A DNA stretch of 64,000 nt, from NCBI GenBank assembly GCA_965203055.1, contig OZ241863.1:3200001-3264000 (forward strand), read 5' to 3'. Source of the stretch: Spirochaetia bacterium. GTDB taxonomy: Bacteria; Spirochaetota; Spirochaetia; SZUA-6; Bin103. The notes under the pieces are model-generated. The model was not told where the DNA came from. It did no database searches and saw only the letters and a list, made by a program, of their open reading frames with translations. Positions within the stretch are counted from its first letter, which is position 1, and each line of letters begins with the position of its first letter. The translations under genes and the position numbers were made by a program. Shown here one piece after another: positions 22,888 through 42,269 of this stretch.

Positions 22888-24390
22888 TCAGTTCCCGTCA
22901 AACATATCGTCATCCAGTTCAGGATTCGCCCAGAAGGGGGCGTAACTGCGGTTTCGCGTCCCTACGGCGGGGTCTGCGATCACGATGAGGCCCGCCGTGA
23001 CCGCCTCATTGAGGAACCGTGACGCCATGGACGCATTGTTCCCGGAAATCCCGAATCGTTCGCGTAGCGAGGCGTTGGTCATACGCTGGCGATTCACGTA
23101 TTGCAGGCAGGCGTGCAGATAGCAGGCCCGCACCCGCTCGGCTCTATCCACGTCGGCCATCGGCTTGCGGGCGAAGAGCACGACGCGGGTAAAGTTCGGC
23201 GGCGACTCGAAGAGCGGAGCCGGCAGTTGGTGACGCTCGATCTCGGCCACGACCTTGTCGATTCCGCTGCCCCGTTCCTCGCAGATCCGAAAGCGGCGCA
23301 TAAGCGAAGCGAGCGCTTCGTTGCGGGAATCGGGCGGACTGTCCAGGAAGCGCTGCGTTTCTACCAGCGGCTCGCCGGGATTCGTGATCTCGATGCGCCC
23401 GTCGAAGATTTCGACCATCGGCCCGGCCCCGGCCACGGAGAAGTCCTGATGGATGAGGGCGTTTCCGACCAACTCGCGCACCGCCGGTGCCGGGAACTCC
23501 GGCACCGCCGCGCGCAACGCCTGGCCCAGTTCCTCTTTCGCCGGCAGTCTGGCGTCAATGTAGTCTACCAGCTCCTCGAAACCGGATGCATAGCCCTTGG
23601 TTCCTTCGTGTTCCTTCAACGTCTCGGTGCGGCCTGCGCCGCGGTATTCGATCACACGCAGGCTCTTACGTTTCAATCGGGAGAAGTCGCCGAGATTCCT
23701 GGCGAGCAGGATGGCGCCCAAATTGGTAATGTCGAAGCCGCCTGCCTTACCAGGCGCGATTATCCGGTCCCTCCGCAGCGCGTCGAGGATGGCGGTACGG
23801 CCATCCGGCAGCGGCGCGGCAAGGAGGTCGAAATAGGCCGGATAGTCGAGCCTGAGCAGAACGTCTTCACCACTTACCCGTTCCGCGGCAACGCCGTCCT
23901 CGAAGGGCACACGGTCGAACATTCGCCAGAGTTCCCGTTCTTTCTCGGGAAATTCCTTGAGCTTTCTGGTGGTACCGCCAACTCGAATGAACTCCACGCC
24001 GCTGAACGCGACCGGTTGCCGAGATGCACGGTCGATCTCCAGGAGCACGACGCGTCCTCCATCATCCACGACTTCGTGAAAGCGGAAGTCGATGCGAGGA
24101 CTCAGGAGCCGCAGCAACCACGTCTCCAGCGGCTCGTTGCCCTTCTTCGCAGTGCCCGGCGAGAAGCCCGTACCCGTGACCGTATGCGTATGGTTCTGGA
24201 TCCCCCAGAGCACGTACGCGTTCACCTTGCCGTGGAGCGCCGCCCCGTTGGCCAGCGCGGAGATGTATCGACCGATACGATCCGGCTGGTCCTGATCGAC
24301 CTTGAACTCGACCCATTCGGTCTCGTGCGGCAGCTTGCACAGCTCACGAACGAGACCGAGAAGGTAGCTATTGTCGCGGCTGGTGATCAT
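22888..24390 (-). CDS. Schlafen/AlbA_2 + HATPase_c_4 (RecG-C-like) + winged-HTH protein
   Basis: ETEWVEFK, ISALAN, WGI; REL..NALIHQD, RIEITNPG, RN..LA, CEERGSGI; MTNASLRERFG...Y.PFWA. Confidence 0.88.
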   Translation of the reverse strand: MITSRDNSYLLGLVRELCKLPHETEWVEFKVDQDQPDRIGRYISALANGAALHGKVNAYVLWGIQNHTHTVTGTGFSPGTAKKGNEPLETWLLRLLSPRIDFRFHEVVDDGGRVVLLEIDRASRQPVAFSGVEFIRVGGTTRKLKEFPEKERELWRMFDRVPFEDGVAAERVSGEDVLLRLDYPAYFDLLAAPLPDGRTAILDALRRDRIIAPGKAGGFDITNLGAILLARNLGDFSRLKRKSLRVIEYRGAGRTETLKEHEGTKGYASGFEELVDYIDARLPAKEELGQALRAAVPEFPAPAVRELVGNALIHQDFSVAGAGPMVEIFDGRIEITNPGEPLVETQRFLDSPPDSRNEALASLMRRFRICEERGSGIDKVVAEIERHQLPAPLFESPPNFTRVVLFARKPMADVDRAERVRACYLHACLQYVNRQRMTNASLRERFGISGNNASMASRFLNEAVTAGLIVIADPAVGTRNRSYAPFWANPELDDDMFDGN

Positions 24391-24960: not shown

Positions 24961-24989
24961 TTGACATCCCAATGGCGGCGCTCTAGCTT
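24961..24989 (+). promoter_or_regulatory. Sigma70-type promoter of ku operon
   Basis: TTGACA-17 bp-TAGCTT upstream of ku. Confidence 0.65.
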
Positions 24990-25025
24990 TGTCAGTGCAG
25001 CGCCGCCGGGGCGCGAGGGGGAGTG

Positions 25026-25907
25026 ATGCCGCTACGTACAAGCTGGAAGGGATTCGTCAAGCTCAGTCTGGTTTCGGTCCCGGTAAAGGCCTACACGGCC
25101 AATGACCCCAGCTCCCAGATTCGCCTCAACCAACTCCACTGCGACTGCAACACGCGCATCGCCTACAAGAAGGTGTGTCCGGTGCACGGCGAGGTGGGCA
25201 GCGATCAGATCACCCGCGGCTACGAGCATGCCAAGGGCCAGTACGTGGTGATCGAAGATGAGGAGCTGGAAAAGCTGCGCACCAAGACCGATCACTCCGT
25301 CAACATCGAAGGATTCGTAGCCCCGGACGATCTGGACCCGGTGTACCACGCCGGCCGTACCTATTACCTGTTGCCCGACGGTCCGGTGGGTCAGAAGCCC
25401 TACCGCCTGCTGTTGCGCGGCATGCAGGAGAACCAGGTGCATGCCCTGGCGCAGGTAGTGATCTCGCAGCGCGAGCAGCTCGTGCTGCTGCGTCCGGTGG
25501 ACGGCATCCTGGCCATGTCCGTACTCAGTCACAAGGCAAAGGTGAAGTCGATCGATCTGTTCCGGGACGAGATCGAGGAGGCGGAGTGCAGCCCCGAGGA
25601 GCTGCAGCTCGCCAGCATGCTGATCGACGCCTCGCGGCTGCAGGACTTCGACTTTGGCAGCTATACCGACCGCTACGTCGAGAAGCTTACCGAGCTGATC
25701 CAACTCAAGGTGCAGGGACAGGACGTGGTGCAGGCGGAGGATGTCGAGGAACCCAAGATCATCAACCTCATGGAGGCGTTGAAGCAGAGCGTTGCCGAGG
25801 CGCAGGGCGCCGCCGAGGCGGCGGGCAAGAAGCAGGCGCCGAGCGCCAAGAGCAAGCGCAGCACTGCGCCGCGCGGCAGCCGGGCGCGCAAGCGGCAGGC
25901 CGGCTAG
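25026..25907 (+). CDS. ku: Ku protein (NHEJ)
   Basis: W.G.V.LSLVSVPVK.Y, RI.Y..VC, RGYE, YYL.PD, D.Y, NLMEALK.S, basic C-terminal tail. Confidence 0.96.
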   Translation: MPLRTSWKGFVKLSLVSVPVKAYTANDPSSQIRLNQLHCDCNTRIAYKKVCPVHGEVGSDQITRGYEHAKGQYVVIEDEELEKLRTKTDHSVNIEGFVAPDDLDPVYHAGRTYYLLPDGPVGQKPYRLLLRGMQENQVHALAQVVISQREQLVLLRPVDGILAMSVLSHKAKVKSIDLFRDEIEEAECSPEELQLASMLIDASRLQDFDFGSYTDRYVEKLTELIQLKVQGQDVVQAEDVEEPKIINLMEALKQSVAEAQGAAEAAGKKQAPSAKSKRSTAPRGSRARKRQAG

Positions 25908-25980: not shown

Positions 25981-26985
25981 ATGCGGACCGTTCCCCTGCC
26001 GGGGCGCGCCGCTGACGCGGCGCAGGGCGAAGTCGTGGCCGTTGCCGGCGCCCGCCTGCCGCGCAGGTTCGCGCCCATGCTCGCCAAGCCGGGTGAGCCG
26101 TTCGACTCCGAGCGCCACCTGTACGAGGTGAAGTGGGACGGCATTCGCGCGGTGACCCTGGTGGAGGGCGGCGGCTACCGCCTGCTGAGCCGGCGCGGCA
26201 CCGACCTTACCGGCAACTACCCGGAGCTGGCTGTCCTGGCGCGGCTGCCCGCCGGCACGGTGGTGGACGGCGAGATCGTGGCGCTCAACGAGGGCCGCCC
26301 CGACTTCGAGTACATCCTGCGCCGCGACCGGCGCGGCCCCCGCGCCCCGGAGACCGGCAGGATGCCGGCGATCTACCTGGTATTCGACCTGATGTACCGT
26401 GACTTCACCTCGGTCATGGAGCTGCCGTTGCTGGACCGGCGGCGCCCGCTGGCCGACCTGGTAAGCGGCTGCGGATCGCCGCACGTCGCCCTCTCCGACG
26501 GCGTGGTCGGCGCCGGCGTGCAGTTCTATCGCGAGGTCTGCCGGCGCGACCTGGAAGGGGTGGTCGCCAAGCGGGTGGACAGCCGCTACCTGGCGGGGCG
26601 GCGCTCGGACGCGTGGCTCAAGATCAAGCGCCGCAGCCGCTACCACTGCGTCGTGCTGGGCTTTCTCGACAAGGAAGGTTCCGACTTTCAGAGTCTGCTG
26701 GTGGCCACCGAGCGGGAGGCGGGGGCGGGGCTGCGCTACGCCGGCCGGGTCGGCACCGGCTTCGACGAGGAGCAGCGGCGGGAGATCAACGCGTTGTTGC
26801 GCCGCCATCCCCGGGCGGCGCCGCTGCTGCCGCGCCCGGCCGAGCTGTCGGCGCGCCATCAGTGGGATCAGGTGCGCTGGGTCGAGCCGGTCCTGTTCTG
26901 CGTCGTCTCCTGTCTGGAGCTGACCAGCGCCGGGATCATGCGGGCGCCGGTGTTCGAGGGGCTGATCGAGGAGTCCGCGCCGTGA
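25981..26985 (+). CDS. ATP-dependent DNA ligase (stand-alone LigD-ligase/LigC-like, NTase + OB domains)
   Basis: PMLA, YEVKWDGIRA (motif I), VDGEIV, VFDLM, LEGVVAKR..S.Y, WLKIK, GRVGTGF, W.EP, MRAPVF. Confidence 0.92.
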   Translation: MRTVPLPGRAADAAQGEVVAVAGARLPRRFAPMLAKPGEPFDSERHLYEVKWDGIRAVTLVEGGGYRLLSRRGTDLTGNYPELAVLARLPAGTVVDGEIVALNEGRPDFEYILRRDRRGPRAPETGRMPAIYLVFDLMYRDFTSVMELPLLDRRRPLADLVSGCGSPHVALSDGVVGAGVQFYREVCRRDLEGVVAKRVDSRYLAGRRSDAWLKIKRRSRYHCVVLGFLDKEGSDFQSLLVATEREAGAGLRYAGRVGTGFDEEQRREINALLRRHPRAAPLLPRPAELSARHQWDQVRWVEPVLFCVVSCLELTSAGIMRAPVFEGLIEESAP

Positions 26986-28376
26986 CCGCGGCGTCCGCCG
27001 GCGGGGACCGGCTGCGCGACCGGGAGGTGGCGTTCGCCGGCCGGCTGGCGTCCATGACCCGGCGCGAGGCCGGCGCGCGGGTAGCCGCGGCCGGAGGCCG
27101 GGTGGTGCGCGAACCAAGCGCCGACACCGCCTACCTGGTGGTAGGGCAGGGCGGCTGGCCGTTGGGCGCGGATGGCCGGCCGGGCAGCGGCATGGCGCGG
27201 GCGCGCCGGCTCAAGGAGCAGCGCGCGCCGTTGAGCATCGTTTCCGAGACTACCTTCCTGCAGATTCTCGGGCTCACGGAGAAGGTGGAAGATCTGCAGC
27301 GCCTGTTTACCACGGCGCAGCTCAGCCGCATCCTCGAGGTGCCGGCGCGGGAGCTGCGCGCCTGGATGCGGCGCAAGCTGATCCGTCCGGTAAAGGTGGC
27401 GCGGCGCCTGGCCTGGTTCGACTTCCGCGAGGTGGCGATGGCGCGGGCGCTGCACGGCCTGATCAGCGCCGGGGTCAGCCCGGCGCGCATCGGGCGCAGC
27501 ATCCGCGAGCTGGCGCAGTGGCTGCCGGAGACCCAGGGCGTCGACACCCAGGCCATGCTCACCCAATTGGAGACTTCCGCCCACGGCCCGGCGCTGAGCA
27601 TCCGGTTGCAGGATGGACGCCTGGCCGACCCGGGCGGCCAGTTGCTGCTCGACTTCCACCGCGGCGCGGCGCCCGGATCGCACCGTGCCGCGATCCGCGC
27701 CTTCACTCCGCCGCACGCGGCGGACCCGCAGCCGGCGCCCGGCGGCCGCCGGCCCGCGGCGCCGGAACTGGTGCGCGACCTGGCCGCGGTGCTGGGCATG
27801 GCGCCTGACGGTATGCCCGCCTCGGAGGAGCCGCCGGGCGTCGCCGAACCGGACACGCCCGGCGGGGTACTCGACTTCGGGACCGCGGCCGGGGCGTGGC
27901 CCGGCGCCGGCCCCGACCAATTGTTCCGGCACGGCGTGCTGGCCGAGGACGCCGGCCAGTGGCACCTCGCCCGCCACCTCTACGAGCGCGCCCTGGCCGC
28001 CGGCGGCGTCGATCCGGAGACCTGCTTCAACCTCGGCAACGTGCTGTACGAGTTGGATCGCAAGCATGCCGCGGCGCGCCGTTACCTGCAGGCGGTGGCG
28101 CTGGACGCCGAGTACGTGGAGTCGCTCAACAACCTGGGCAACGCCCTGGCCGAGAGCGGCTGGCTGAACGAAGCGGTGCGCGCCTACCGCCGCGCGCTAC
28201 TCCTGGAGCCCGCCTACGCCGATGCCCACAGCAACCTGGCGGAGGCCCTGGTGTACCTCGGCCGCTATGGGGAGGCGCGCTTCCACTGGACCGCCTATCT
28301 CGCCATCGACCCGCGCAGTTCCTGGGCCAACGCCATCCGCGAATTGCTGCGCAATCTCCCCGCCGACCGTAACTGA
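26982..28376 (+). CDS. BRCT - MerR-type HTH - TPR protein
   Basis: LigA-like BRCT (V.FAGRL.SMTR.EA...V...GG...T.YLVVG...IVSE..F); HTH (QLSRILEV....LRAW.R..LI.P...FDF.EV); TPRs (FNLGNVLY, NNLGNALA, HSNLAEAL); GTG overlaps ligase stop. Confidence 0.82.
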   Translation: MTAASAGGDRLRDREVAFAGRLASMTRREAGARVAAAGGRVVREPSADTAYLVVGQGGWPLGADGRPGSGMARARRLKEQRAPLSIVSETTFLQILGLTEKVEDLQRLFTTAQLSRILEVPARELRAWMRRKLIRPVKVARRLAWFDFREVAMARALHGLISAGVSPARIGRSIRELAQWLPETQGVDTQAMLTQLETSAHGPALSIRLQDGRLADPGGQLLLDFHRGAAPGSHRAAIRAFTPPHAADPQPAPGGRRPAAPELVRDLAAVLGMAPDGMPASEEPPGVAEPDTPGGVLDFGTAAGAWPGAGPDQLFRHGVLAEDAGQWHLARHLYERALAAGGVDPETCFNLGNVLYELDRKHAAARRYLQAVALDAEYVESLNNLGNALAESGWLNEAVRAYRRALLLEPAYADAHSNLAEALVYLGRYGEARFHWTAYLAIDPRSSWANAIRELLRNLPADRN

Positions 28377-29240: not shown

Positions 29241-31337
29241 TCAGGAGGCTGCAAGATACTCCTGCAGGCGCTCGATTGCGGGGGCGAAGTCCTGGGGATC
29301 GGTCAGCGTGGAGCGAAACCGATCGCCGCGCCGCGCCAGGAGCGCCGGGGTGTTCGCAATGGTGAACATGCCGGGGTGCAGGTCGCCGTCCAGCTCGTCC
29401 CACTCCAGCGGCATCGACACGCGCGCGCCCGGGACCGGGCGCGCCACGTAGGGTGGCACCATGGTGGCGCTCTTGCGATTTTGCAGGAAGTCCACGTACA
29501 CCTTGCCGCCGCGCCCGCGCGGGTGCCGTTCCACGCTGGCGATGTCGGGATGCTCGCGCGCCACCATGCGCCCGACCGCCTCCATGAACAGGCGTACCTG
29601 GTGGTAGCCGTAACCGGGCACCAGCGGCAGATAGACGTGCAGCCCGGAGGCGCCGGAGGTCTTGACGGAGGGGTGCAGGCCGATGCCGCGCAACACCTTG
29701 CCGGCGGTGCGCGCCACCCGCTTGGCGTTGGCGAAGGAAGATTCCTTGGCGTCCAGGTCCAGTACCGCGAAGTCGGGGTGCTCCAGGCTGGCGCGGCGCG
29801 ACAGCCAGGGGTGCAGCTCGATGCTGCCCAGATTGATCAGGTAGAGCAGGGTCCGCACGTCGTTGCAGACGAGTTGGCGGTCGTGCCGCGCGTCGACCTC
29901 CACCAGTTCCACCCAGTCCGGCACCCCGGCCGGAGCCTGGCGCTGGAAGAACGACTTGCCCTCGATGCCGTTGGGGTAGCGGTGCAGGTGCACCGGCCGT
30001 TCGCGCAGGTAGGGGAGGAGAAACTCGGCCACCTGCTCGTAGAACTGCAGCAGGTCGCCCTTGGTGTAACCCTCGCGCGGCCAGAACACCTTGTCCAGGT
30101 TGCTGAACGCGACCGCGGCGTCGCGCGGCCGGCGCTGCCGGGCCTGCGCCAGGGCGGTGCTGACGTCGACCCGGCGCGCCGCCGCGGCCGCCTGCAGCGC
30201 CACCCTGCGCCACGCCGGCCGGGCGCCCGACCGATAGCGGCTGTCGGCCCGCTTGGCGACCAGCGCGTGGAAGCCGGCGGCCTCGGCGACCGCGGCCAGA
30301 CGCTCGCCGCTCGCCGCGACGTGATCGGCGTACAGCAGGCCGGGCGACGGCGGCAGCAGCGAGCGCAGCAGGTGCTTGCGTTCCAGCAGCGGCAGGCCGC
30401 GCAGGTCCCATTCATCGTAGTGCAGCAGGTCGAATGCGTAGTAGACGACGGCTCCCTGGGTCTCCCCGCTGCCGGCCCAGGCGTCGATGGCGCCCCGCGC
30501 AGGGCGGCCGCTCCGGTCCAGCGCCACCCACACCCCGTCCAGCAGCGCCTGTTCGGCGCGGACGCCGGCGAAGCGCGCCTGCGCCGCCGCCGCGGCGCGC
30601 GGATGCAGGGGCAGCCGCCCCCCGCCCGGCGCCGCGAACGCCGCCGCGCCGCCGTTGATCATGGCCAGGGCGCGGAGCCCCTCGAACTCCAGCTCGAAGA
30701 TCCAGTCGGCGCCGGAGAACTGCTCATGGTCGGCGCCCGCGGCCATGGCTCGCGGGCGCTTGGGAAGGGGCGCCGTGCGTACCCGCGCCGGGTCCACCGC
30801 CGGTACCGGGTCGCCGGCGCCGCGGGCGTAGCGGTCGCGCGCCTTGAACAGCAGCCAATCATCCTTGTCGGGGTTGGTCCGCACCAGGTGCCACTCGCCG
30901 CGCAGCCGGCGGCCGCGCAGCATCACCTTCACTTCGCCGGCGGCGAGCGCCTCCGCCAGGCCGGCGGCCTTCACGATCTCGTAGGAACCGGAGTCCCAGA
31001 TCAGCATGGTGCCGGCGCCGTATTCACCCTTCGGAATCACGCCTTCGAAGGTGCGGTAGCGCAGCGGATGATCCTCGGTGCGCACCGCCAGATGCTTCTC
31101 CGCCGGGTCATAGGAGAAACCGCGCGGGACGGCCCAGGATACCAGTACCCCGCCGGCCGCGAGGCGCAGATCGTAGTGCACGCGGCGCGCCTCGTGGCGA
31201 TGGATCACGAAGCTGCCCTCAGCGGCCGGCGGAGCTTCCCCGGATGCCCCCGCCGGGTCGTCGAACGCGGGTTCCGGAGTGCGGTGAAAGTTGCGCTTGG
31301 CCTGATATTCCGCGGCGGACTTCGAGCTGCGCGCCAT
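29241..31337 (-). CDS. ligD: LigD-type protein: 3'-phosphoesterase - degenerate ligase - primase/polymerase
   Basis: PE: Y..KR.F..TPEP, H.ARR.HYDLRL, TEDHP; POL: YTK.DL..Y, RYPNG, DLD, KTSG..GLH, VDFLQN; ligase motif I reads ELEFEG. Confidence 0.9.
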   Translation of the reverse strand: MARSSKSAAEYQAKRNFHRTPEPAFDDPAGASGEAPPAAEGSFVIHRHEARRVHYDLRLAAGGVLVSWAVPRGFSYDPAEKHLAVRTEDHPLRYRTFEGVIPKGEYGAGTMLIWDSGSYEIVKAAGLAEALAAGEVKVMLRGRRLRGEWHLVRTNPDKDDWLLFKARDRYARGAGDPVPAVDPARVRTAPLPKRPRAMAAGADHEQFSGADWIFELEFEGLRALAMINGGAAAFAAPGGGRLPLHPRAAAAAQARFAGVRAEQALLDGVWVALDRSGRPARGAIDAWAGSGETQGAVVYYAFDLLHYDEWDLRGLPLLERKHLLRSLLPPSPGLLYADHVAASGERLAAVAEAAGFHALVAKRADSRYRSGARPAWRRVALQAAAAARRVDVSTALAQARQRRPRDAAVAFSNLDKVFWPREGYTKGDLLQFYEQVAEFLLPYLRERPVHLHRYPNGIEGKSFFQRQAPAGVPDWVELVEVDARHDRQLVCNDVRTLLYLINLGSIELHPWLSRRASLEHPDFAVLDLDAKESSFANAKRVARTAGKVLRGIGLHPSVKTSGASGLHVYLPLVPGYGYHQVRLFMEAVGRMVAREHPDIASVERHPRGRGGKVYVDFLQNRKSATMVPPYVARPVPGARVSMPLEWDELDGDLHPGMFTIANTPALLARRGDRFRSTLTDPQDFAPAIERLQEYLAAS

Positions 31338-34073: not shown

Positions 34074-36203
34074 CAGGAAAATCCCATGCTACAGAGGCTG
34101 GTGGGAGCCGCGCCGACGCGGAGGCCGGAGTGGCCAGCGACAATCAAGATGAGAACCGAGCGGCTGCCTCCGGCGGAGGGGAATGGGACAGCGGGTGGCG
34201 CACCTGAGGGCTTGGTCCCGACCGTAGTCGCGCAGTTGGCCCCGGACGGCGACCGGATGGGAGCGCGGGGCGGGCCGGGAGTGGTTCGAGGAGTGGGGGC
34301 GGAGCGCTTGAAGCGGGGCTGCGCCAGCCTCAGCCGGGCGCCATGAGGGCCTTGATGGCTACCTTCGGGCGCCCGGTAAAGTAGCGTAGTGCCGACGCCA
34401 CGTTGGTCCACCGGCGGTAGCGCAGGATCAGTGCCAGCACCAGGTTGTTGCACACCGCGCGGTTGGCAGGCGCCGCGTGGCGCCGCGCCAGGCAGGCGTC
34501 CTCAGCCAAGGTGCGGTCGCGGCGATGGTGGTTCTTCGACTCGATCGCCCAGTGGCCGCGGTTCCAGGCCAGCAGTTGCTCCGCAGAGGCTTCGGAGGCC
34601 GGCACCGAAGTGATGCCGTAGGCGTAGGTAACGGTCTTCTCGCCGCTCTTGAGCACGTGGCGGTCGCGGCGCACCCGGAACACCTGCGCGACGTGCGGGT
34701 AGTTGAGGGTGTTGGGCGGCAAGGTCATAACTTCGATGTGGCGCCGTTCGATGCGGCCATGGGCCTTCTCGGACGCTGTGGAGAAGCGCGCGGTAGCGTG
34801 TTCCCAGGGGATGCTGACGAGTGCCTCGTAGGTCTCGGAGGAGTTCTGCTTGACGGTCATCTGATAGTGGGCCTGGTGCTGTTCGACGATCTTGGTGGCG
34901 GTGTCGCGGGTGGTGTGGAGGGCATCGAGGGTGATCACCGCGCCGCCGATCGAGACGGTCTCCAGCAGGGCGCCGACGGCGGCCAACTCGCCATTCTCGT
35001 CGTGGAAGTTGAGACTGGCGAGCGGCACGCCGGTGCCGTGCTCGACCAGGGTGGCGGTCTCGTAGCGTAGCGAGCCGTGGCGATTGGCGCCGCGAATGCG
35101 CTTGCCGTCGGCCGCGATGGCGCGGCGTTGGCGCGGAGCTGGCGGTGGCAGGCGGGACTCGGAATAGCGCTGCAGGATGGCTTCGAGGTGCTCGGTATCG
35201 GCGTGCATGAGCACCCGGTGGATGGTGGACTTGGGGGGCGGATGGTAGCGCCCGGTGCGCCGATTGCGCCACGCGCCAATATCTTTGAGGTCCTTCTGCG
35301 TGAGCCTCTGAGCATACTCCGCCGCCGCGACCGGGCCGCGAAAGTTGCCCAGCGCAGCCAGCAGGTAGACTGTCAGCACGGTCGCAATGGAGTGCTTGCG
35401 CCCCTGGCCGCGGCGGTAGTCGGGGAGGTCTTCGAGTTCGGCGTACAGACTGCGCTTATCGACTGCGGCGTTATCGTCTGGGTGTTCGGGCCGTGCCCGC
35501 CAGCAGTCTGGCAGCTTGCCGGGCTGGCTGAGGATACGCCGGGCATCGCGCCGCAAGGGGCGCACGAAGAGACGCTTCGGGTGGCCGTGAGGGTCGGTGT
35601 AGTGGCCGTTGCTGCGCGCGTAGCCCTTGCTGTCGCCGACGTAGGTCCAGTTGCCGGCCTGATACAGGGTGCCGGAGAAGCGCTGCGGATCGACGAAGCT
35701 CTCCGCAACCAGCAGCGGATGGCCGTAGTGGTGCTGCCAATCGGAACTGAGTTGGCGCAGCATCGCGGCCATCATCCTGGAGGCGAGATTGGGAAACACG
35801 CCGCGCTGGCCCAGGACGACGAAGCGGGTGTTGTTGGCCACCAGATGGAGGCGGCGGAACATTTCGGGGCGGCGCCAGCCGATCCAGCGATCGCGGGGTG
35901 CGCACTTGAGGGCGGCGCCCTGCCAGCCGGCGAGCGCGAGCCAGCGACCGCGCCAGACGGCGAGATAGCGCAGGCCGCGGCCGGCGAAGCGGGTGAAGCC
36001 GAGATAGTGATGGTGGTTCATCAGCGCGTCCCACTGGACGCGTTCGTGGGGGTGTGCGAGGCGCACCTCCACTTCGTCGAGCGCAAACCCTGGGGGCGTG
36101 GCCTGGGGCAGGGGTTCGTCGAGCACCTTCCGAGAGTCCATGGCCTAAGCCTATCAACTCAGTTCTCGGCAGTCCAGTCCCTCCTTAGCATGGGATCGCC
36201 TTG
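34074..36203 (-). mobile_element. ISAs1-family insertion sequence, about 2130 bp, with imperfect terminal IRs and target duplication
   Basis: IRs CAGGAAAATCCCATGCTACAGAGG / CAAGGCGATCCCATGCTAAGGAGG (18/24); GCGTGCCAT duplicated at 34065-34073 and 36204-36212. Confidence 0.88.
34330..36141 (-). CDS. ISAs1 transposase with N-terminal DUF4338 domain
   Basis: N: HHYLG, RD.WIGW, NNTRF, NLAS, ESFVD, GT.Y.A.NW; C: D.R...G..H, IA.DGK, ITLDALH, VK.N, HGRIE.R, R.HW.IE..H..RD..L.ED. Confidence 0.92.
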   Translation of the reverse strand: MDSRKVLDEPLPQATPPGFALDEVEVRLAHPHERVQWDALMNHHHYLGFTRFAGRGLRYLAVWRGRWLALAGWQGAALKCAPRDRWIGWRRPEMFRRLHLVANNTRFVVLGQRGVFPNLASRMMAAMLRQLSSDWQHHYGHPLLVAESFVDPQRFSGTLYQAGNWTYVGDSKGYARSNGHYTDPHGHPKRLFVRPLRRDARRILSQPGKLPDCWRARPEHPDDNAAVDKRSLYAELEDLPDYRRGQGRKHSIATVLTVYLLAALGNFRGPVAAAEYAQRLTQKDLKDIGAWRNRRTGRYHPPPKSTIHRVLMHADTEHLEAILQRYSESRLPPPAPRQRRAIAADGKRIRGANRHGSLRYETATLVEHGTGVPLASLNFHDENGELAAVGALLETVSIGGAVITLDALHTTRDTATKIVEQHQAHYQMTVKQNSSETYEALVSIPWEHATARFSTASEKAHGRIERRHIEVMTLPPNTLNYPHVAQVFRVRRDRHVLKSGEKTVTYAYGITSVPASEASAEQLLAWNRGHWAIESKNHHRRDRTLAEDACLARRHAAPANRAVCNNLVLALILRYRRWTNVASALRYFTGRPKVAIKALMAPG

Positions 36204-37728: not shown

Positions 37729-38115
37729 ATGAAGACGAGGATCGGAGCGGGCTTGATGGTCATTGCCTCCTATTTGGCGACGTTGGGCTGCGCCACGATA
37801 CTGAACGACAAGAACCCGCCACTTACTGTGACATCGAACCCCGATGGCGCTGAGGTACACGTTGATGGCTACTATGCAGGGAGAACCCCGCTGACAACCA
37901 ATGTGTCCATCAGACAGGAACATACCGTCACGGTAAGGAAAGAGGGATACCGGGATAACACGAAGATAGTCGGTTACTATACTGGTGCACTCTGGATAGT
38001 CCTGGATATTTTAACAGGACTAATTCCCCTCATAGTAGACGCCGTAACCGGAGACTGGCAGGAGCTTGACCACGAATCTGTCCACTTAGAGCTTGCGCCG
38101 GAGCCGTCCGAATGA
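37729..38115 (+). CDS. PEGA-domain lipoprotein
   Basis: Lipobox LGC-ATI; V.SNP.GA.V.VDG...G.TP...H.V...KEGY; IVDAVTG.W. Confidence 0.8.
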   Translation: MKTRIGAGLMVIASYLATLGCATILNDKNPPLTVTSNPDGAEVHVDGYYAGRTPLTTNVSIRQEHTVTVRKEGYRDNTKIVGYYTGALWIVLDILTGLIPLIVDAVTGDWQELDHESVHLELAPEPSE

Positions 38116-38224
38116 GACACCGCGAACGTTCCCGCTTGCAGGCCGAGGAGCGACCGCTCGACGTGCTGTCCGCCAGCAACGACATCAACCGCTCCGTGCG
38201 ATTGCGGTCAGGCCCGCCGGAAGA

Positions 38225-41002
38225 ATGACTCGCGACTTTGTTGGCGCCCGCTGGTGGCGGTTCGACTTCCACACCCACACCCCGGCCTCTCAAGACTACG
38301 GGAAGGGGGCGGATCAAGAGGAACTTCGCCGCCGCAGCCCGCGCGAGTGGTTGTTCGACTTCATGCGTGCGGAAGTAGACTGCGTTGCCGTTACCGATCA
38401 CAACACCGGCGCTTGGATCGATCCGCTCAAGGAAGCATACCGGGAGATCGAGCAGAGTGGGCCGGATGACTTCCGTCCGCTCGTACTGTTTCCAGGCGTC
38501 GAGATTACCGTACACGGCGGCGTGCACCTGCTGGCGATCTTCGATCCGACCGCTAACGGGGCGCAGGTCGAGGCTCTTCTCGGCGCGGCCGGTCTTCCGG
38601 CCGATGCGGCGGGGGCATTGGACGTTCTGACCGACAAGACCTTCGTGGAGGTTGCCCGGGCCGTCCACGACGCCGGGGCGCTCGCTATTCCTGCTCATGT
38701 CGATGCCGAACGGGGCATCTTCATGAACTTCCGCGGAACTACGCTCAACCAGGTGCTCGCCTGCAGCCATATCATCGCTGCTGAGGCTCTCAAAGATGGC
38801 ATCGTCGAACGTCGCCAGCCTGCATGGAGCGCCGTTATCGGCTCGGATAGCCACCACCCCGGAGGAGCAGCAGGGCAGCGATATCCGGGAAGCAACTCTA
38901 CCTGGGTAAAGATGGAGCGACCGACCCTCGAAGGTCTGCGCTTGGCCCTGATCGACGGGGCGCCGCTTTCCCTGCTGCGCAGCGACCGTTGCACTGAGAA
39001 CCCAAACGGGCACACCCACTTAGTGGTCGAGAGCATCACGGTGCAGGAAGCGAAGTACGCGGGGAGAGGCGGGGGACCGCTTGAAGCTCACTTCAGTCCG
39101 TGGATGTCAGCCCTGATAGGAGGACGGGGAACCGGCAAGTCAACGGTCATTGAGATGCTGCGCCTCGTGCTCGACCGTGCCGCAGAGCTTCCGGAGGATA
39201 TGCGCCGCGAGTTCGAGTCGTTCGCGAGCATCCCGGTGTCGCGGACCGACCGCGGCGCGCTGACCGAACAGACCGAGTTGACGGTAGTAGTACGTAAGGA
39301 TCGGAGACGCTTACGGTTGATATGGACGGGAGGGAACGGGCGGATCGAGGAACAGGATCAAGAAGGCCGTTGGTTGTCCAGTTTCGGCGACGTTAAAGAC
39401 CGCTTTCCGGTCTGGCTATACAGCCAGAAACAGCTCTTCACACTTGCCAGCGACCAGAGCGCGTTGCTTCACGTAGTGGACAGGGTGCCTGAAATGAGAC
39501 GCTTGGAATGGAGCACGTCCCGGGACCAACTCGAAGCTCGATTTCTCAGTTACCACACTCAAATCCGTGAGCTGGCTGCCCAATTGCGGGAGCGGTCCCG
39601 TGTCGAGGGACAACTTGCCGACGTGAAGCAGAAGTTGACGATCTTCGAACAGGGAAGTCATCGGCAGCGTCTGCTCGACTACCAGAGATTCAGACGTCAG
39701 CGCCGAGCGATGGATGATCGTCTCGCGGATTTGCAGCAGGCGGTAGAGCGGTCTCGATCATTTGCCGAGGAAATTGAGCCGGTTGACGTCCGGGAGGATG
39801 AGTTCGACTGCCGGGATACAGCGTCGGCTCAGGCGCTGGAACTTCTCCAGGAAGCAGCCGAATACCAACGCTCTATCGCGGCCAGTATTGTCAAATTGGC
39901 GGAAAATTTAGAGAAGTTTTGCAACGGCTGGAAGGAGCGGGCAGACCGTTCGGAGTGGACGCAACGAGAAGAAGATGTCCGCAGAGATTATCAGGATCTC
40001 GTGGCGCGTCTGGAACAGGCGGGGGTCGATGATCCATCGGAGTACGGCGCGCTGGTGCAACGGCGACAAACCCTGGAGAGCAGGTTGTCTGCGCTGGAGA
40101 CGGTCGCTGACCGGATTCGGCAGCTTCAGGAGCAGGCTAGAGCGGCTCTCACAGAGATAGAGGCTACGCGCGCAGAGCTGACTCGCACGCGCATCAAGTT
40201 CCTCAGTAGAGTACTCCAGGGAAACGAATTCGTGTCGATTTCCGTGGTGCCGTTCGGCGAGACCGCGGCGCAATCAGAATCGGCGTTTCGCTGGCATTTG
40301 AGCCGTAACGACCAACATCTGCGAAGCGATATTTTGGCAGTGGATGGTCAGCGCGGCATTCTCGCCAGGCTGTACCGCGGTCTTCCGGTCGATGGTGAGG
40401 ACCGTATCCGAGAATCGTGCGCGCGCATCGCTCGCATCAAGCGTCAGATCGCCACGATTGCTCAGGGAGAATCTGATTCAAGATTCACCAAGTGGTTCCA
40501 CAACCACGTTCGGGGGCTTCCTCCCGAACAGATTGACCGCTTCCTGCTGTGGTGGCCCGAGGATGGCCTGCGTGTGTCGTATCGGCGAGGAAGTTCCGGA
40601 GGGTCGTTGGTTCCGATTGAGCAAGGGTCTCCGGGACAGAAATCGGCCGCCATGCTTGCGTTCCTTCTCTCTCACGGAGATGAGCCGATCGTGCTCGATC
40701 AACCGGAAGACGATCTCGACAACCACTTGATCTACGATCTGATCGTGCAGCAGCTCAGGGCAAGCAAGCGCCGCCGGCAGATAATCGTCGCCACCCACAA
40801 TCCCAACGTAGTCGTAAACGGCGACGCCGAGATGGTTATCTCGATGGATCACCGTTGCGGTCAGTGTGTGGTGGTCCGAGAGGGGACCGGCAGCCTCCAG
40901 GACCAGGGCGTGCGCGACGAAGTGTGCCGAGTGATGGAGGGCGGCCGCACTGCGTTCGAGCGAAGGTATCGGCGTCTGTTGCAGGAGAGCGGCGATGCTT
41001 GA
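38225..41002 (+). CDS. PHP-domain + SMC/ABC-type ATPase (TrlF/Ppl-like anti-phage protein)
   Basis: DFHTHTPAS, VTDHN, PGVE, H.L, PAH, GSDSH; Walker A GGRGTGKST, coiled coil, GSPGQK, LDQPEDDLDN, ATHN. Confidence 0.88.
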   Translation: MTRDFVGARWWRFDFHTHTPASQDYGKGADQEELRRRSPREWLFDFMRAEVDCVAVTDHNTGAWIDPLKEAYREIEQSGPDDFRPLVLFPGVEITVHGGVHLLAIFDPTANGAQVEALLGAAGLPADAAGALDVLTDKTFVEVARAVHDAGALAIPAHVDAERGIFMNFRGTTLNQVLACSHIIAAEALKDGIVERRQPAWSAVIGSDSHHPGGAAGQRYPGSNSTWVKMERPTLEGLRLALIDGAPLSLLRSDRCTENPNGHTHLVVESITVQEAKYAGRGGGPLEAHFSPWMSALIGGRGTGKSTVIEMLRLVLDRAAELPEDMRREFESFASIPVSRTDRGALTEQTELTVVVRKDRRRLRLIWTGGNGRIEEQDQEGRWLSSFGDVKDRFPVWLYSQKQLFTLASDQSALLHVVDRVPEMRRLEWSTSRDQLEARFLSYHTQIRELAAQLRERSRVEGQLADVKQKLTIFEQGSHRQRLLDYQRFRRQRRAMDDRLADLQQAVERSRSFAEEIEPVDVREDEFDCRDTASAQALELLQEAAEYQRSIAASIVKLAENLEKFCNGWKERADRSEWTQREEDVRRDYQDLVARLEQAGVDDPSEYGALVQRRQTLESRLSALETVADRIRQLQEQARAALTEIEATRAELTRTRIKFLSRVLQGNEFVSISVVPFGETAAQSESAFRWHLSRNDQHLRSDILAVDGQRGILARLYRGLPVDGEDRIRESCARIARIKRQIATIAQGESDSRFTKWFHNHVRGLPPEQIDRFLLWWPEDGLRVSYRRGSSGGSLVPIEQGSPGQKSAAMLAFLLSHGDEPIVLDQPEDDLDNHLIYDLIVQQLRASKRRRQIIVATHNPNVVVNGDAEMVISMDHRCGQCVVVREGTGSLQDQGVRDEVCRVMEGGRTAFERRYRRLLQESGDA

Positions 41003-42269
41003 TGCGCCGGACCAGCTTCTGCGGAAGCTCCGGCTCGGAGAGGACAGCTTCCTGGAGTGCAAGGAGATAGTCTTTGCGGGAAGCAAGGTCAAGGGACCGG
41101 CGCGCAACGACCTCGCGGACGAATTGGCGGCGTTTGCCAACGCGCACGGCGGAATCCTGGTGTTGGGCGTTGAGGACAAGAGCCGCGAGATTGTTGGGAT
41201 ACCCGTAGATCGGCTGGACGCTGCGGTGCGCTACGTCTCGGAGGTCGCTCAGGATTCGATTCGGCCGCCACTCGATCCCGTCATCGAACGGCTGGAGCTG
41301 CCGGACACTAGCGGGCGAACGCAGGCCATCGTCCGCGTCGAGGTCATCCGCAGCCTGTTCGTGCATGAGAGCCCTTCCGGCTACCTGCATCGCGTGGGTG
41401 ACGCGAAGCGCCGAATGGACCCGCAGTATCTCGCGCGGCTGTTCCAGCAGCGCAGCCAGGCGCGCCTCGTGCGGTTCGACGAGCAGAGGCTGGAGGATGC
41501 TTCGTTCTCCCATCTGGACGCAAATCTTATCGAGCGCTTCGCCCTCCCGGAGGTCGCGGATGAGCTTGCGGTTCTCGCCCGCAAGCTGGGCATGGCCGCG
41601 GCCCCGGACGGCGATGATCTCCGCCCGACTGTGGCCGGCGTTCTACTCGGCGCTCGGCAGCCGGAGCGTTGGCTGTCCCACGCCTACATCCAGGCAGTGG
41701 CCTATCGCGGCCGGACGGTGCCGGACGCCCTGGAGTCTGCCTGGTATCAACTCGACGCCGCCGACATCGGGGGACCGCTCGACGCGCAGGTTACGGACGC
41801 ATGCCGGTTCGTCGTCCGCAACCAGCAGGTGCGCGCCAGAAAGACGCTCGGCCGCGTGGACCAGCCGCAGTACGACATGACCGCGGTGTTCGAAGCGGTG
41901 GTCAACGCCGTAGCTCACCGCGACTACGCGATGCACGGAAGCCGCATACGGCTGCACATGTTCGCCGACCGCATCGAGCTGTACTCGCCGGGTGCGCTGG
42001 CGAACACGCTCACGGTCGAGGACTTGGCGTACCGTCAGGCAAGCCGCAACGAAACGCTGGCGAGCCTGCTTGCCAGCTGCCCGGTTCCCTCCGGGATCGC
42101 TGGGCTTGAGACTAACCGAACGACCCTGATGGACCGCCGCGGACAGGGTGTGCCGATCATTCTGGTACGCAGCACGCAGCTTTCCGGGAAGCGGCCGGAG
42201 TATCGCTTGTTCGGCGACGAATTGCGTTTGACCATCTACGCGGCGCACGGCGATGCCGAAGGAGGATAG
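40995..42269 (+). CDS. Schlafen/AlbA_2 + HATPase_c_4 protein (no C-terminal HTH)
   Basis: GEDS.LE.K, AAFAN..GG.LVLGVED; EAVVNAVAHRDY, DRIELYSPG, RN..L, MDRRG.GV; overlaps PHP-ATPase stop. Confidence 0.88.
   Translation: MLDAPDQLLRKLRLGEDSFLECKEIVFAGSKVKGPARNDLADELAAFANAHGGILVLGVEDKSREIVGIPVDRLDAAVRYVSEVAQDSIRPPLDPVIERLELPDTSGRTQAIVRVEVIRSLFVHESPSGYLHRVGDAKRRMDPQYLARLFQQRSQARLVRFDEQRLEDASFSHLDANLIERFALPEVADELAVLARKLGMAAAPDGDDLRPTVAGVLLGARQPERWLSHAYIQAVAYRGRTVPDALESAWYQLDAADIGGPLDAQVTDACRFVVRNQQVRARKTLGRVDQPQYDMTAVFEAVVNAVAHRDYAMHGSRIRLHMFADRIELYSPGALANTLTVEDLAYRQASRNETLASLLASCPVPSGIAGLETNRTTLMDRRGQGVPIILVRSTQLSGKRPEYRLFGDELRLTIYAAHGDAEGG

Follow-up and report, generated by a model that had tools for sequence, protein, structure and literature searches.

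A large unnamed family of MerR-like helix-turn-helix and TPR proteins encoded beside ku, a possible third component of bacterial end joining

Non-homologous end joining (NHEJ) in bacteria is described as having two core components in the available parts of PMC12784961, PMC6379672 and PMC7969030. We analysed a 64,000-nt stretch of a Spirochaetia bacterium genome (assembly GCA_965203055.1, contig OZ241863.1, positions 3,200,001 to 3,264,000; hereafter the window), in which ku and a ligase gene are followed by a gene for a 464-aa protein (26982..28376, + strand; single copy in the genome) made of a BRCT domain, a MerR-like helix-turn-helix (HTH), a beta-meander, a linker and four TPRs. We found that this protein is one of a large unnamed family in which ku, and not the ligase, is the constant neighbour, that the linkage to ku extends across phyla, and that conserved TPR residues co-vary with it. 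Some role of the family in the ku system is highly probable. Whether the protein is, more specifically, a non-essential NHEJ accessory factor that binds the basic tail of Ku as well as DNA is a proposal for which we see about equal chances of being right or wrong.

A protein similarity search returned 612 homologues, the closest full-length one being 97% identical. We inspected 80 genome loci, the best 80 of at least 129 confirmed and chosen on protein similarity alone, whose record titles name Planctomycetota, Spirochaetota and a few unclassified organisms. The gene directly upstream is the ligase in 40 of them and ku in 11; another NHEJ gene lies nearby in 8, no NHEJ gene is present in 21, and ku occurs somewhere in the locus in 50 of the 80. 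The BRCT-less form of the family (1,131 clusters at 90% identity) stands directly behind ku in 52 of 53 metagenome loci (those of 80 in which 500 nt or more of upstream sequence were present), overlaps it by 4 nt in 33 of 49 measured loci, and follows it in all 9 plasmid loci inspected (of 43 records); the plasmid and metagenome loci are mutually related and do not count as independent trials. A profile search also reached a BRCT-bearing member on pSymB of Sinorhizobium meliloti 1021, at about 1490711-1491796, missed by tblastn with betaproteobacterial or planctomycete members, where the order is ligD-ku-gene and the start overlaps the ku stop as TGATG. This ku is presumably ku2, because of the account given in part of PMC6379672, and the tandem ku pair of S. 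meliloti has no family gene within its 1.5-kb flanks. An earlier note on this DNA had tied the gene to the ligase. Its link to NHEJ holds, but the ligase is not the constant partner, since ku is the adjacent gene in the BRCT-less, plasmid and S. meliloti loci. On pSymB (L257:2180-3635), an alpha/beta-hydrolase-like and then an exonuclease III-like open reading frame, both recognized by eye, lie behind the homologue on the same strand.

The association was also followed in 251 evenly sampled Planctomycetota genomes. The core profile gave 49 matches, of which 44 with E < 1e-16 were kept; the 5 dropped were four short regulators without TPRs and one divergent TPR-bearing member (G405) in a genome without Ku. 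Ku was detected in 40 of the 251 genomes. Gene and Ku occur together in 25, the gene alone in 19, Ku alone in 15 and neither in 192 (odds ratio 17, overstated by kinship). In 22 of the 25 genomes with both, coordinates place the gene downstream of ku, on its strand and no more than about 4 kb away. The family gene seems to go with single-Ku systems. Two neighbouring ku genes, like the ku3-ku4 pair, were seen in 5 of the 15 gene-less Ku-positive planctomycetes (L239, L242, L243, L246, L247). Among 200 genomes of the window's phylum, a sample in which Ku was left uncounted, we found only BRCT-only matches besides the window itself, and the gene is rare there. Clustered at 50% identity, the whole family gives about 1,700 groups (E ≤ 1e-10), some of them presumably stand-alone regulators; look-alike clusters also list Acidobacteriota and Myxococcota, which we take as a lead only. 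In the family tree the window protein clusters with Spirochaetota sequences (SH-aLRT 96), and both sides of the deepest split, under a midpoint root, hold ku-linked members. One supported clade of 19 rows is unlinked from ku, although 3 of its genomes have ku elsewhere, and further unlinked copies lie scattered among linked ones. The earlier note had named missing linkage to ku or ligD, together with missing interaction, as what would speak against its proposal; homologues are linked, with an unlinked minority.

The other elements that the earlier note had read from the letters were confirmed by sequence, Pfam and structure prediction. The GTG start shares GTGA with the ligase stop (26983-26985) and is preceded, 8 nt upstream, by GAGGAG; we infer translational coupling to the ligase. 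All domains are encoded on the + strand. After the BRCT comes the winged HTH with short helices behind it (residues 107-180; 27300..27521), placed by Pfam (MerR_1, PF13411, residues 109-175, E 2e-9), by the model and by a fold match, and lacking the long MerR dimerisation helix. A helix and a small beta-meander follow (27546..27656; model and family alignment), ending in GQLLLDF (27636-27656), and then an Ala/Pro-rich linker (residues 226-305; 27657..27896), whose 80 residues include 18 Ala and 14 Pro. The linker is far shorter in most relatives and appears lengthened in the source lineage, judging from the sequence, the relatives' lengths and the model. The C-terminal third has TPR matches in Pfam (best E 2e-18) and is predicted to fold into four helix pairs (residues 311-442) with a capping helix (447-458), encoded together at 27912..28355. 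The 34-residue helix-pair repeats carry conserved Asn, as in TPR peptide-binding domains, and E322, N350, N384, D414 and N418 are conserved. Whole-protein sequence and fold searches of the PDB returned TPR proteins only.

Conservation in the TPRs follows the linkage to ku. E322, N350, N384 and N418 are kept in 98, 95, 100 and 100%, respectively, of the 68 proteins from planctomycetes and spirochaetes that are linked to ku or NHEJ, and in 93, 96, 100 and 96% of 33 proteobacterial-type linked proteins; the S. meliloti protein keeps equivalents of all four. In the ku-unlinked clade (17 members, two near-duplicates removed) the same positions become Y/L, Q/H, Q and H. Because the TPR residues co-vary with ku linkage, it would be simplest to suppose that the ku operon itself encodes what the TPRs bind. 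In the unlinked clade the protein has probably been re-purposed and has acquired another ligand. We also noted that this clade (L120-L139, e.g. L128:3556-4872) has 9 loci divergent from glyA, its own strongly conserved HTH and the altered TPR residues; no DNA-repair theme emerged among the shared clusters that neighbour unlinked copies. One Ku-less genome holds two tandem, long-branched copies of the gene (L124:4476-7232).

The basic C-terminal tail of Ku is our candidate for this ligand. The TPR region is acidic (mean net charge –8 to –17), and linked Ku proteins have long basic tails (median 42 aa). An internal tail motif, [KRQ][MQLA]A[PSG]S, occurs in 42 of 54 linked Ku proteins (0.9 in shuffles), and 38 of the 54 have a terminal one, [KR][KR]x(1-2)G (0.6 in shuffles), both patterns having been chosen after inspection. 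The window Ku has such a basic tail, with KKQAPS (25827-25844) and a terminal RKRQAG (25887-25904). In Ku from genomes without the family gene, the internal motif was found in 0 and the terminal motif in 1 of the 8 tails parsed (of 15). For the full protein with Ku residues 238-294 the predicted complex reached ipSAE 0.41 (runs 0.41, 0.64 and 0.29), against 0.01 for the best of 3 controls, with a contact agreement of at least 54% and partner pLDDT of at least 46. In calibration 116 of 157 solved pairs attained the ipSAE mark, as did 2 of 215 mismatched ones; at 0.60 or under there were just 18 of the 157 solved pairs, but both mismatches. The prediction lends weak support to binding. It raises the odds modestly because the Ku tail had been guessed beforehand, from conservation. 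In B. subtilis Ku, according to part of PMC4889933, the basic extension governs threading and the bridging of DNA, and the minimal C-terminus binds LigD.

We suggest that the family protein, which would share its transcript with Ku, could serve Ku-dependent end joining as a third and non-essential component. Its acidic, Asn-lined TPR groove would bind the basic Ku tail, and the HTH/beta-meander module, probably dimeric, together with the BRCT where present, would hold DNA near the break irrespective of sequence. Occupation of the Ku tail might then tune the amount of Ku at ends, the time for which ends stay paired, or the handover from Ku to the ligase, and the effect on Ku could be either stimulation or restraint. 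It is conceivable, though on the doubtful side, that the family is a widespread dedicated third NHEJ factor in which the TPRs grip the Ku tail and an HTH/BRCT dimer holds or bridges the ends and controls threading and release of Ku, with QLxLDF perhaps docking on the sliding clamp and so linking end joining to sites of replication and repair.

Compared with two-component bacterial NHEJ (a Ku homodimer and LigD), the window locus shares Ku, an NHEJ ligase and the phosphoesterase (PE) and polymerase (POL) domains of LigD, but it has an extra coupled gene, and ligation apparently rests on a stand-alone ligase. In eukaryotes, PAXX and XLF are non-catalytic partners of Ku. The likeness of the family protein to them would be one of role alone: sequence and fold searches gave no homology, and in this case the groove would sit on the accessory protein and the peptide on Ku. 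Both are named as eukaryotic NHEJ factors in the available text of PMC12784961. According to the consulted portion of PMC4889933, mechanisms that regulate Ku threading should exist and prokaryotes are not known to have a DNA-PKcs homologue; the ku-coupled family is a candidate for what limits or unloads bacterial Ku. If this is true, the "two-protein" pathway of bacterial break repair has a third partner, a counterpart of the eukaryotic Ku partners. The comparison names residues on both the family protein and Ku, and S. meliloti is a carrier with quantitative NHEJ assays. Database names of family members are TPR or MerR proteins only, and we found no description of the family in the open literature (subscription papers and supplements lay outside the search, and S. 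meliloti gene maps there may show the gene); term look-ups gave no TPR, MerR or BRCT in PMC11936186, and in PMC8656161 the terms TPR, clamp and accessory were likewise absent.

Several observations weigh against a Ku-tail partner. That the conserved TPR residues line the groove is our assumption from general TPR geometry. Nineteen scattered unlinked copies retain these residues, and to explain this one needs a recent loss of ku, gaps in the assemblies or a different ligand from Ku. On the Ku side, the tail contrast is confounded by Ku phylogeny and draws on just 8 of 15 control tails; moreover, the tail motifs differ from clade to clade, and basic tails are common in Ku generally. Among the 44 planctomycete carriers, 19 have no detected Ku (20 of 45 if the divergent G405 is included), and of these 19 none has LigD POL and 4 have an ATP-ligase domain. 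Similarly, 20 of 29 genomes with a ku-less locus had no detectable Ku, 16 of the 20 without LigD POL (genomes of unstated completeness), and the gene is absent from 15 of 40 Ku-positive planctomycetes. Because there are Ku-less carriers and scattered unlinked copies, the protein can persist without NHEJ. Finally, ectopic ku2 restored near wild-type plasmid repair in S. meliloti, as reported in part of PMC6379672, and the family gene would be dispensable in that assay if the deletion used was polar on it.

The QLLLDF motif (residues 220-225; 27639-27656) had been read in the earlier note as a possible beta-clamp tether. Such a tether would bind DnaN and tie end joining or break sensing to clamps left on DNA; it is compatible with a Ku-tail partner, and we consider it unlikely. 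Over 289 sequences under 70% identity the family pattern is G-Q-L-x-[LFM]-D-F, with G219 at 97%, Q220 at 99-100% and F225 at 81-91%. The fit of Q-L-x-[LFM]-D-F to the hexameric consensus Q-phi-x-L-x-L, as in E. coli DnaE QVELEF (available portion of bioRxiv 10.64898/2026.05.27.728225), stands; Q220 and F225 also remain at 100% in the ku-unlinked clade, as for a universal partner, the modelled motif adjoins a flexible linker, and dnaN is present in the genome. The tethering itself is unproven, the strand being common to ku-less regulators. QLLLDF is modelled as the last strand of the beta-meander (pLDDT about 70-86), and the Gly before it is as strongly conserved as the Gln. GQL also aligns in 207-residue regulators that have no TPR, BRCT or ku and whose motif reads QLVFSV (probability 97); at motif position 2 Arg is found in 88% of the proteins in the unlinked clade and in 23% of the linked ones, and the S. 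meliloti motif ends in Val. Because of the strand position and the alignment with ku-less regulators, a structural and possibly dimer-forming role for GQLLLDF appears more likely than clamp binding. The beta-meander (about residues 190-225) is hardly covered by any structural match.

The protein might instead be a transcriptional regulator or autoregulator of the ku operon, its HTH binding an operator and its TPRs sensing Ku or a damage signal, as in autoregulating HTH antitoxins. Every one of 75 family members matches MerR_1, and the HTH model matches the DNA-binding domains of TipAL (2vz4; Z 8.4, root-mean-square deviation (rmsd) 1.8, 57 aligned), SoxR and GlnR. Stand-alone regulators also align with the whole core (probability 97), and part of it aligns with Rv2018 (5af3, E 7e-4), an HTH-DUF433 fusion and predicted antitoxin in the accessible part of PMC2701414. 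The winged HTH is shared with MerR-like regulators (GlnR/TnrA, TipAL) and Rv2018, and the helical hairpin and beta-meander with the stand-alone regulators. Yet the family protein has only short helices (148-162, 167-178, 189-200) before the meander, linker and TPRs, with no long dimerisation helix or effector domain. MerR promoters have a lengthened spacer, whereas 13 of the 14 matches here have one of 17 nt. The sequences upstream of ku, searched in 54 and 48 loci at one width with a simple sampler, yielded no palindrome, and the best motifs hardly exceeded shuffles (8.4 versus 7.5 and 8.8 versus 7.5 bits). The residues of the recognition helix and the wing vary from clade to clade, and in S. 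meliloti the HTH is degenerate and escapes the core profiles. We consider regulation quite unlikely. Because of the missing dimerisation helix, the absent palindrome, the ordinary spacer and the degenerate S. meliloti HTH, sequence-independent DNA binding fits the domain better. Of the accessory factor put forward in the earlier note, the NHEJ association survives through the ku linkage; its alternative, a damage-responsive MerR-type regulator, found no support in the operator search upstream of ku, the promoter spacer or the S. meliloti HTH. As separate observations, the stand-alone regulators (about 207 aa; L147-L149, L151, L152) carry the HTH and beta-meander core followed by a C-terminal domain, for which a HicB-like impression gained by eye was dropped, there being no such Pfam match; and a AAAGTGGCA-like element recurs at varying distance upstream of ku in proteobacterial-type loci (L081, L086, L088, L158, L159, L164, L222, L225, L228).

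A general DNA-damage sensor or adaptor, for a protease for example, could be co-expressed with ku and act independently of Ku. The gene is indeed kept intact without Ku or LigD in many planctomycetes, single-contig genomes among them, and nine of these loci are divergent from glyA. It nevertheless stands directly behind ku, closer than ligD, on both sides of the deepest split, and the TPR residues are altered in the unlinked clade, which makes this an improbable account. Least probable of all is an accessory subunit that would lend BRCT and DNA-binding domains in trans to the stand-alone ligase: the overlap in the window, the 40 ligase-adjacent loci and the LigDs of the window's group, of which 21 of 23 lack the catalytic lysine motif (in 18 of these cases the locus has a separate ligase), speak for it, but BRCT-bearing forms follow ku without a ligase (11 of the 80 best loci; S. 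meliloti), the ligase can also be followed by BRCT-less forms (L020, L028, L041, L078, L144-146), and proteobacterial-type loci have an intact LigD and no separate ligase.

The N-terminus (about residues 9-98; 27006..27275) is a BRCT domain of the single LigA/RFC1 type and is optional in the family. In the window protein alone the match is weak (Pfam E 0.04, below cut-off), although residues 5-96 match the NCBIfam DnaQ-BRCT PRK06195 (E 2e-8) and LigA (E 3e-5), and 44 of 75 family members match PF00533. The family profile matches RFC1 at E 2e-8 and the LigA of E. coli at E 6e-7, with Lig IV at just E 0.33; designed PPR repeats outrank RFC1 and LigA in this search by summed repeats alone, none passing singly. 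The N-terminal model (pLDDT 89.7, pTM 0.80) has the BRCT of RFC p140 as its best structural match (Z 9.3, rmsd 2.6, 83 aligned). Foldseek gave nothing at E ≤ 0.001 for the model, its top rows being LigA and RFC1 BRCTs. The LigA-like BRCT of the earlier note is thus borne out by the family profile and the p140 fold match, and the N-terminus does model as a BRCT; its analogy with Lig IV and Pol X is a loose one, since the domain is optional, of the single LigA/RFC1 type and distant from Lig IV. Sequence and fold place it nearest to the single BRCTs of LigA, RFC1 (p140) and DnaQ-BRCT, with T-G and Arg27 kept in most ku-linked members, but it is N-terminal, optional and carried by a non-enzyme, and its second loop is about 9 residues longer. 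At the positions that we take to form the phosphate pocket (Thr-Gly, Arg and Lys), ku-linked members have T in 77%, G in 100%, Arg27 in 72% and Lys, after the loop, in 23%; the window copy has A, G, R and G. DNA-end binding by the window copy is uncertain because the usual Thr and Lys are replaced. The RFC1 BRCT binds DNA with a preference for 5'-phosphate ends (part of PMC9293009), and the BRCT proteins of most bacteria are said, in the available text of PMC10386641, to be the ligase and Pol III ones only.

Within the window, ku (25023..25907, +; TIGR02772 above cut-off) is the only copy found in the genome. A promoter-like TTGACA-17 nt-TAGCTT lies upstream of it (24961..24989, +), recognized as a sequence pattern and not listed by a consensus promoter scan; of the 18 loci in the spirochaete group, 14 have a TTGAC-17-TAGCTT-like pattern, set after inspection (0.02 in shuffles), the window being one of them. 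The stand-alone ATP-dependent NHEJ ligase follows (26035..26985, +; TIGR02779 above cut-off, start codon inferred from homologue P0060), with the catalytic motif KWDGIR intact and its stop overlapping the start of the 464-aa gene. The ligD gene (29241..31337, –; phosphoesterase, degenerate ligase, polymerase) is convergent with the latter, beyond a PhyH gene that is not conserved (2 of 80 loci, adjacent in neither). In the ligase part of this LigD the lysine is replaced (ELEFEGLR) and the OB domain is absent. The lysine-less LigDs counted above (loci L002-L079, L144, L146 and the window) share a shortened middle, and the 2 intact LigDs have no separate ligase. Judging from these sequences, labour is split, ligation having apparently moved from LigD to the stand-alone enzyme. 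Further ATP-ligase-like and LigD-polymerase-like genes lie outside the window in the same genome (about 2141342-2147906 and 3942520-3943188).

No RNA element was listed for the window locus, and a PADLOC scan gave just a short HTH match to mad1 (E 3e-4), with no stretch passing. The surroundings look like a mobile or defence-like neighbourhood: an AlbA_2/HATPase_c_4 protein by Pfam (22888-24390, –) with a second look-alike, a long open reading frame that by eye resembles a transposase fused to an N-terminal domain (34330-36141, –), and a large PHP/ATPase-like frame, also recognized by eye (38093-42269, +).

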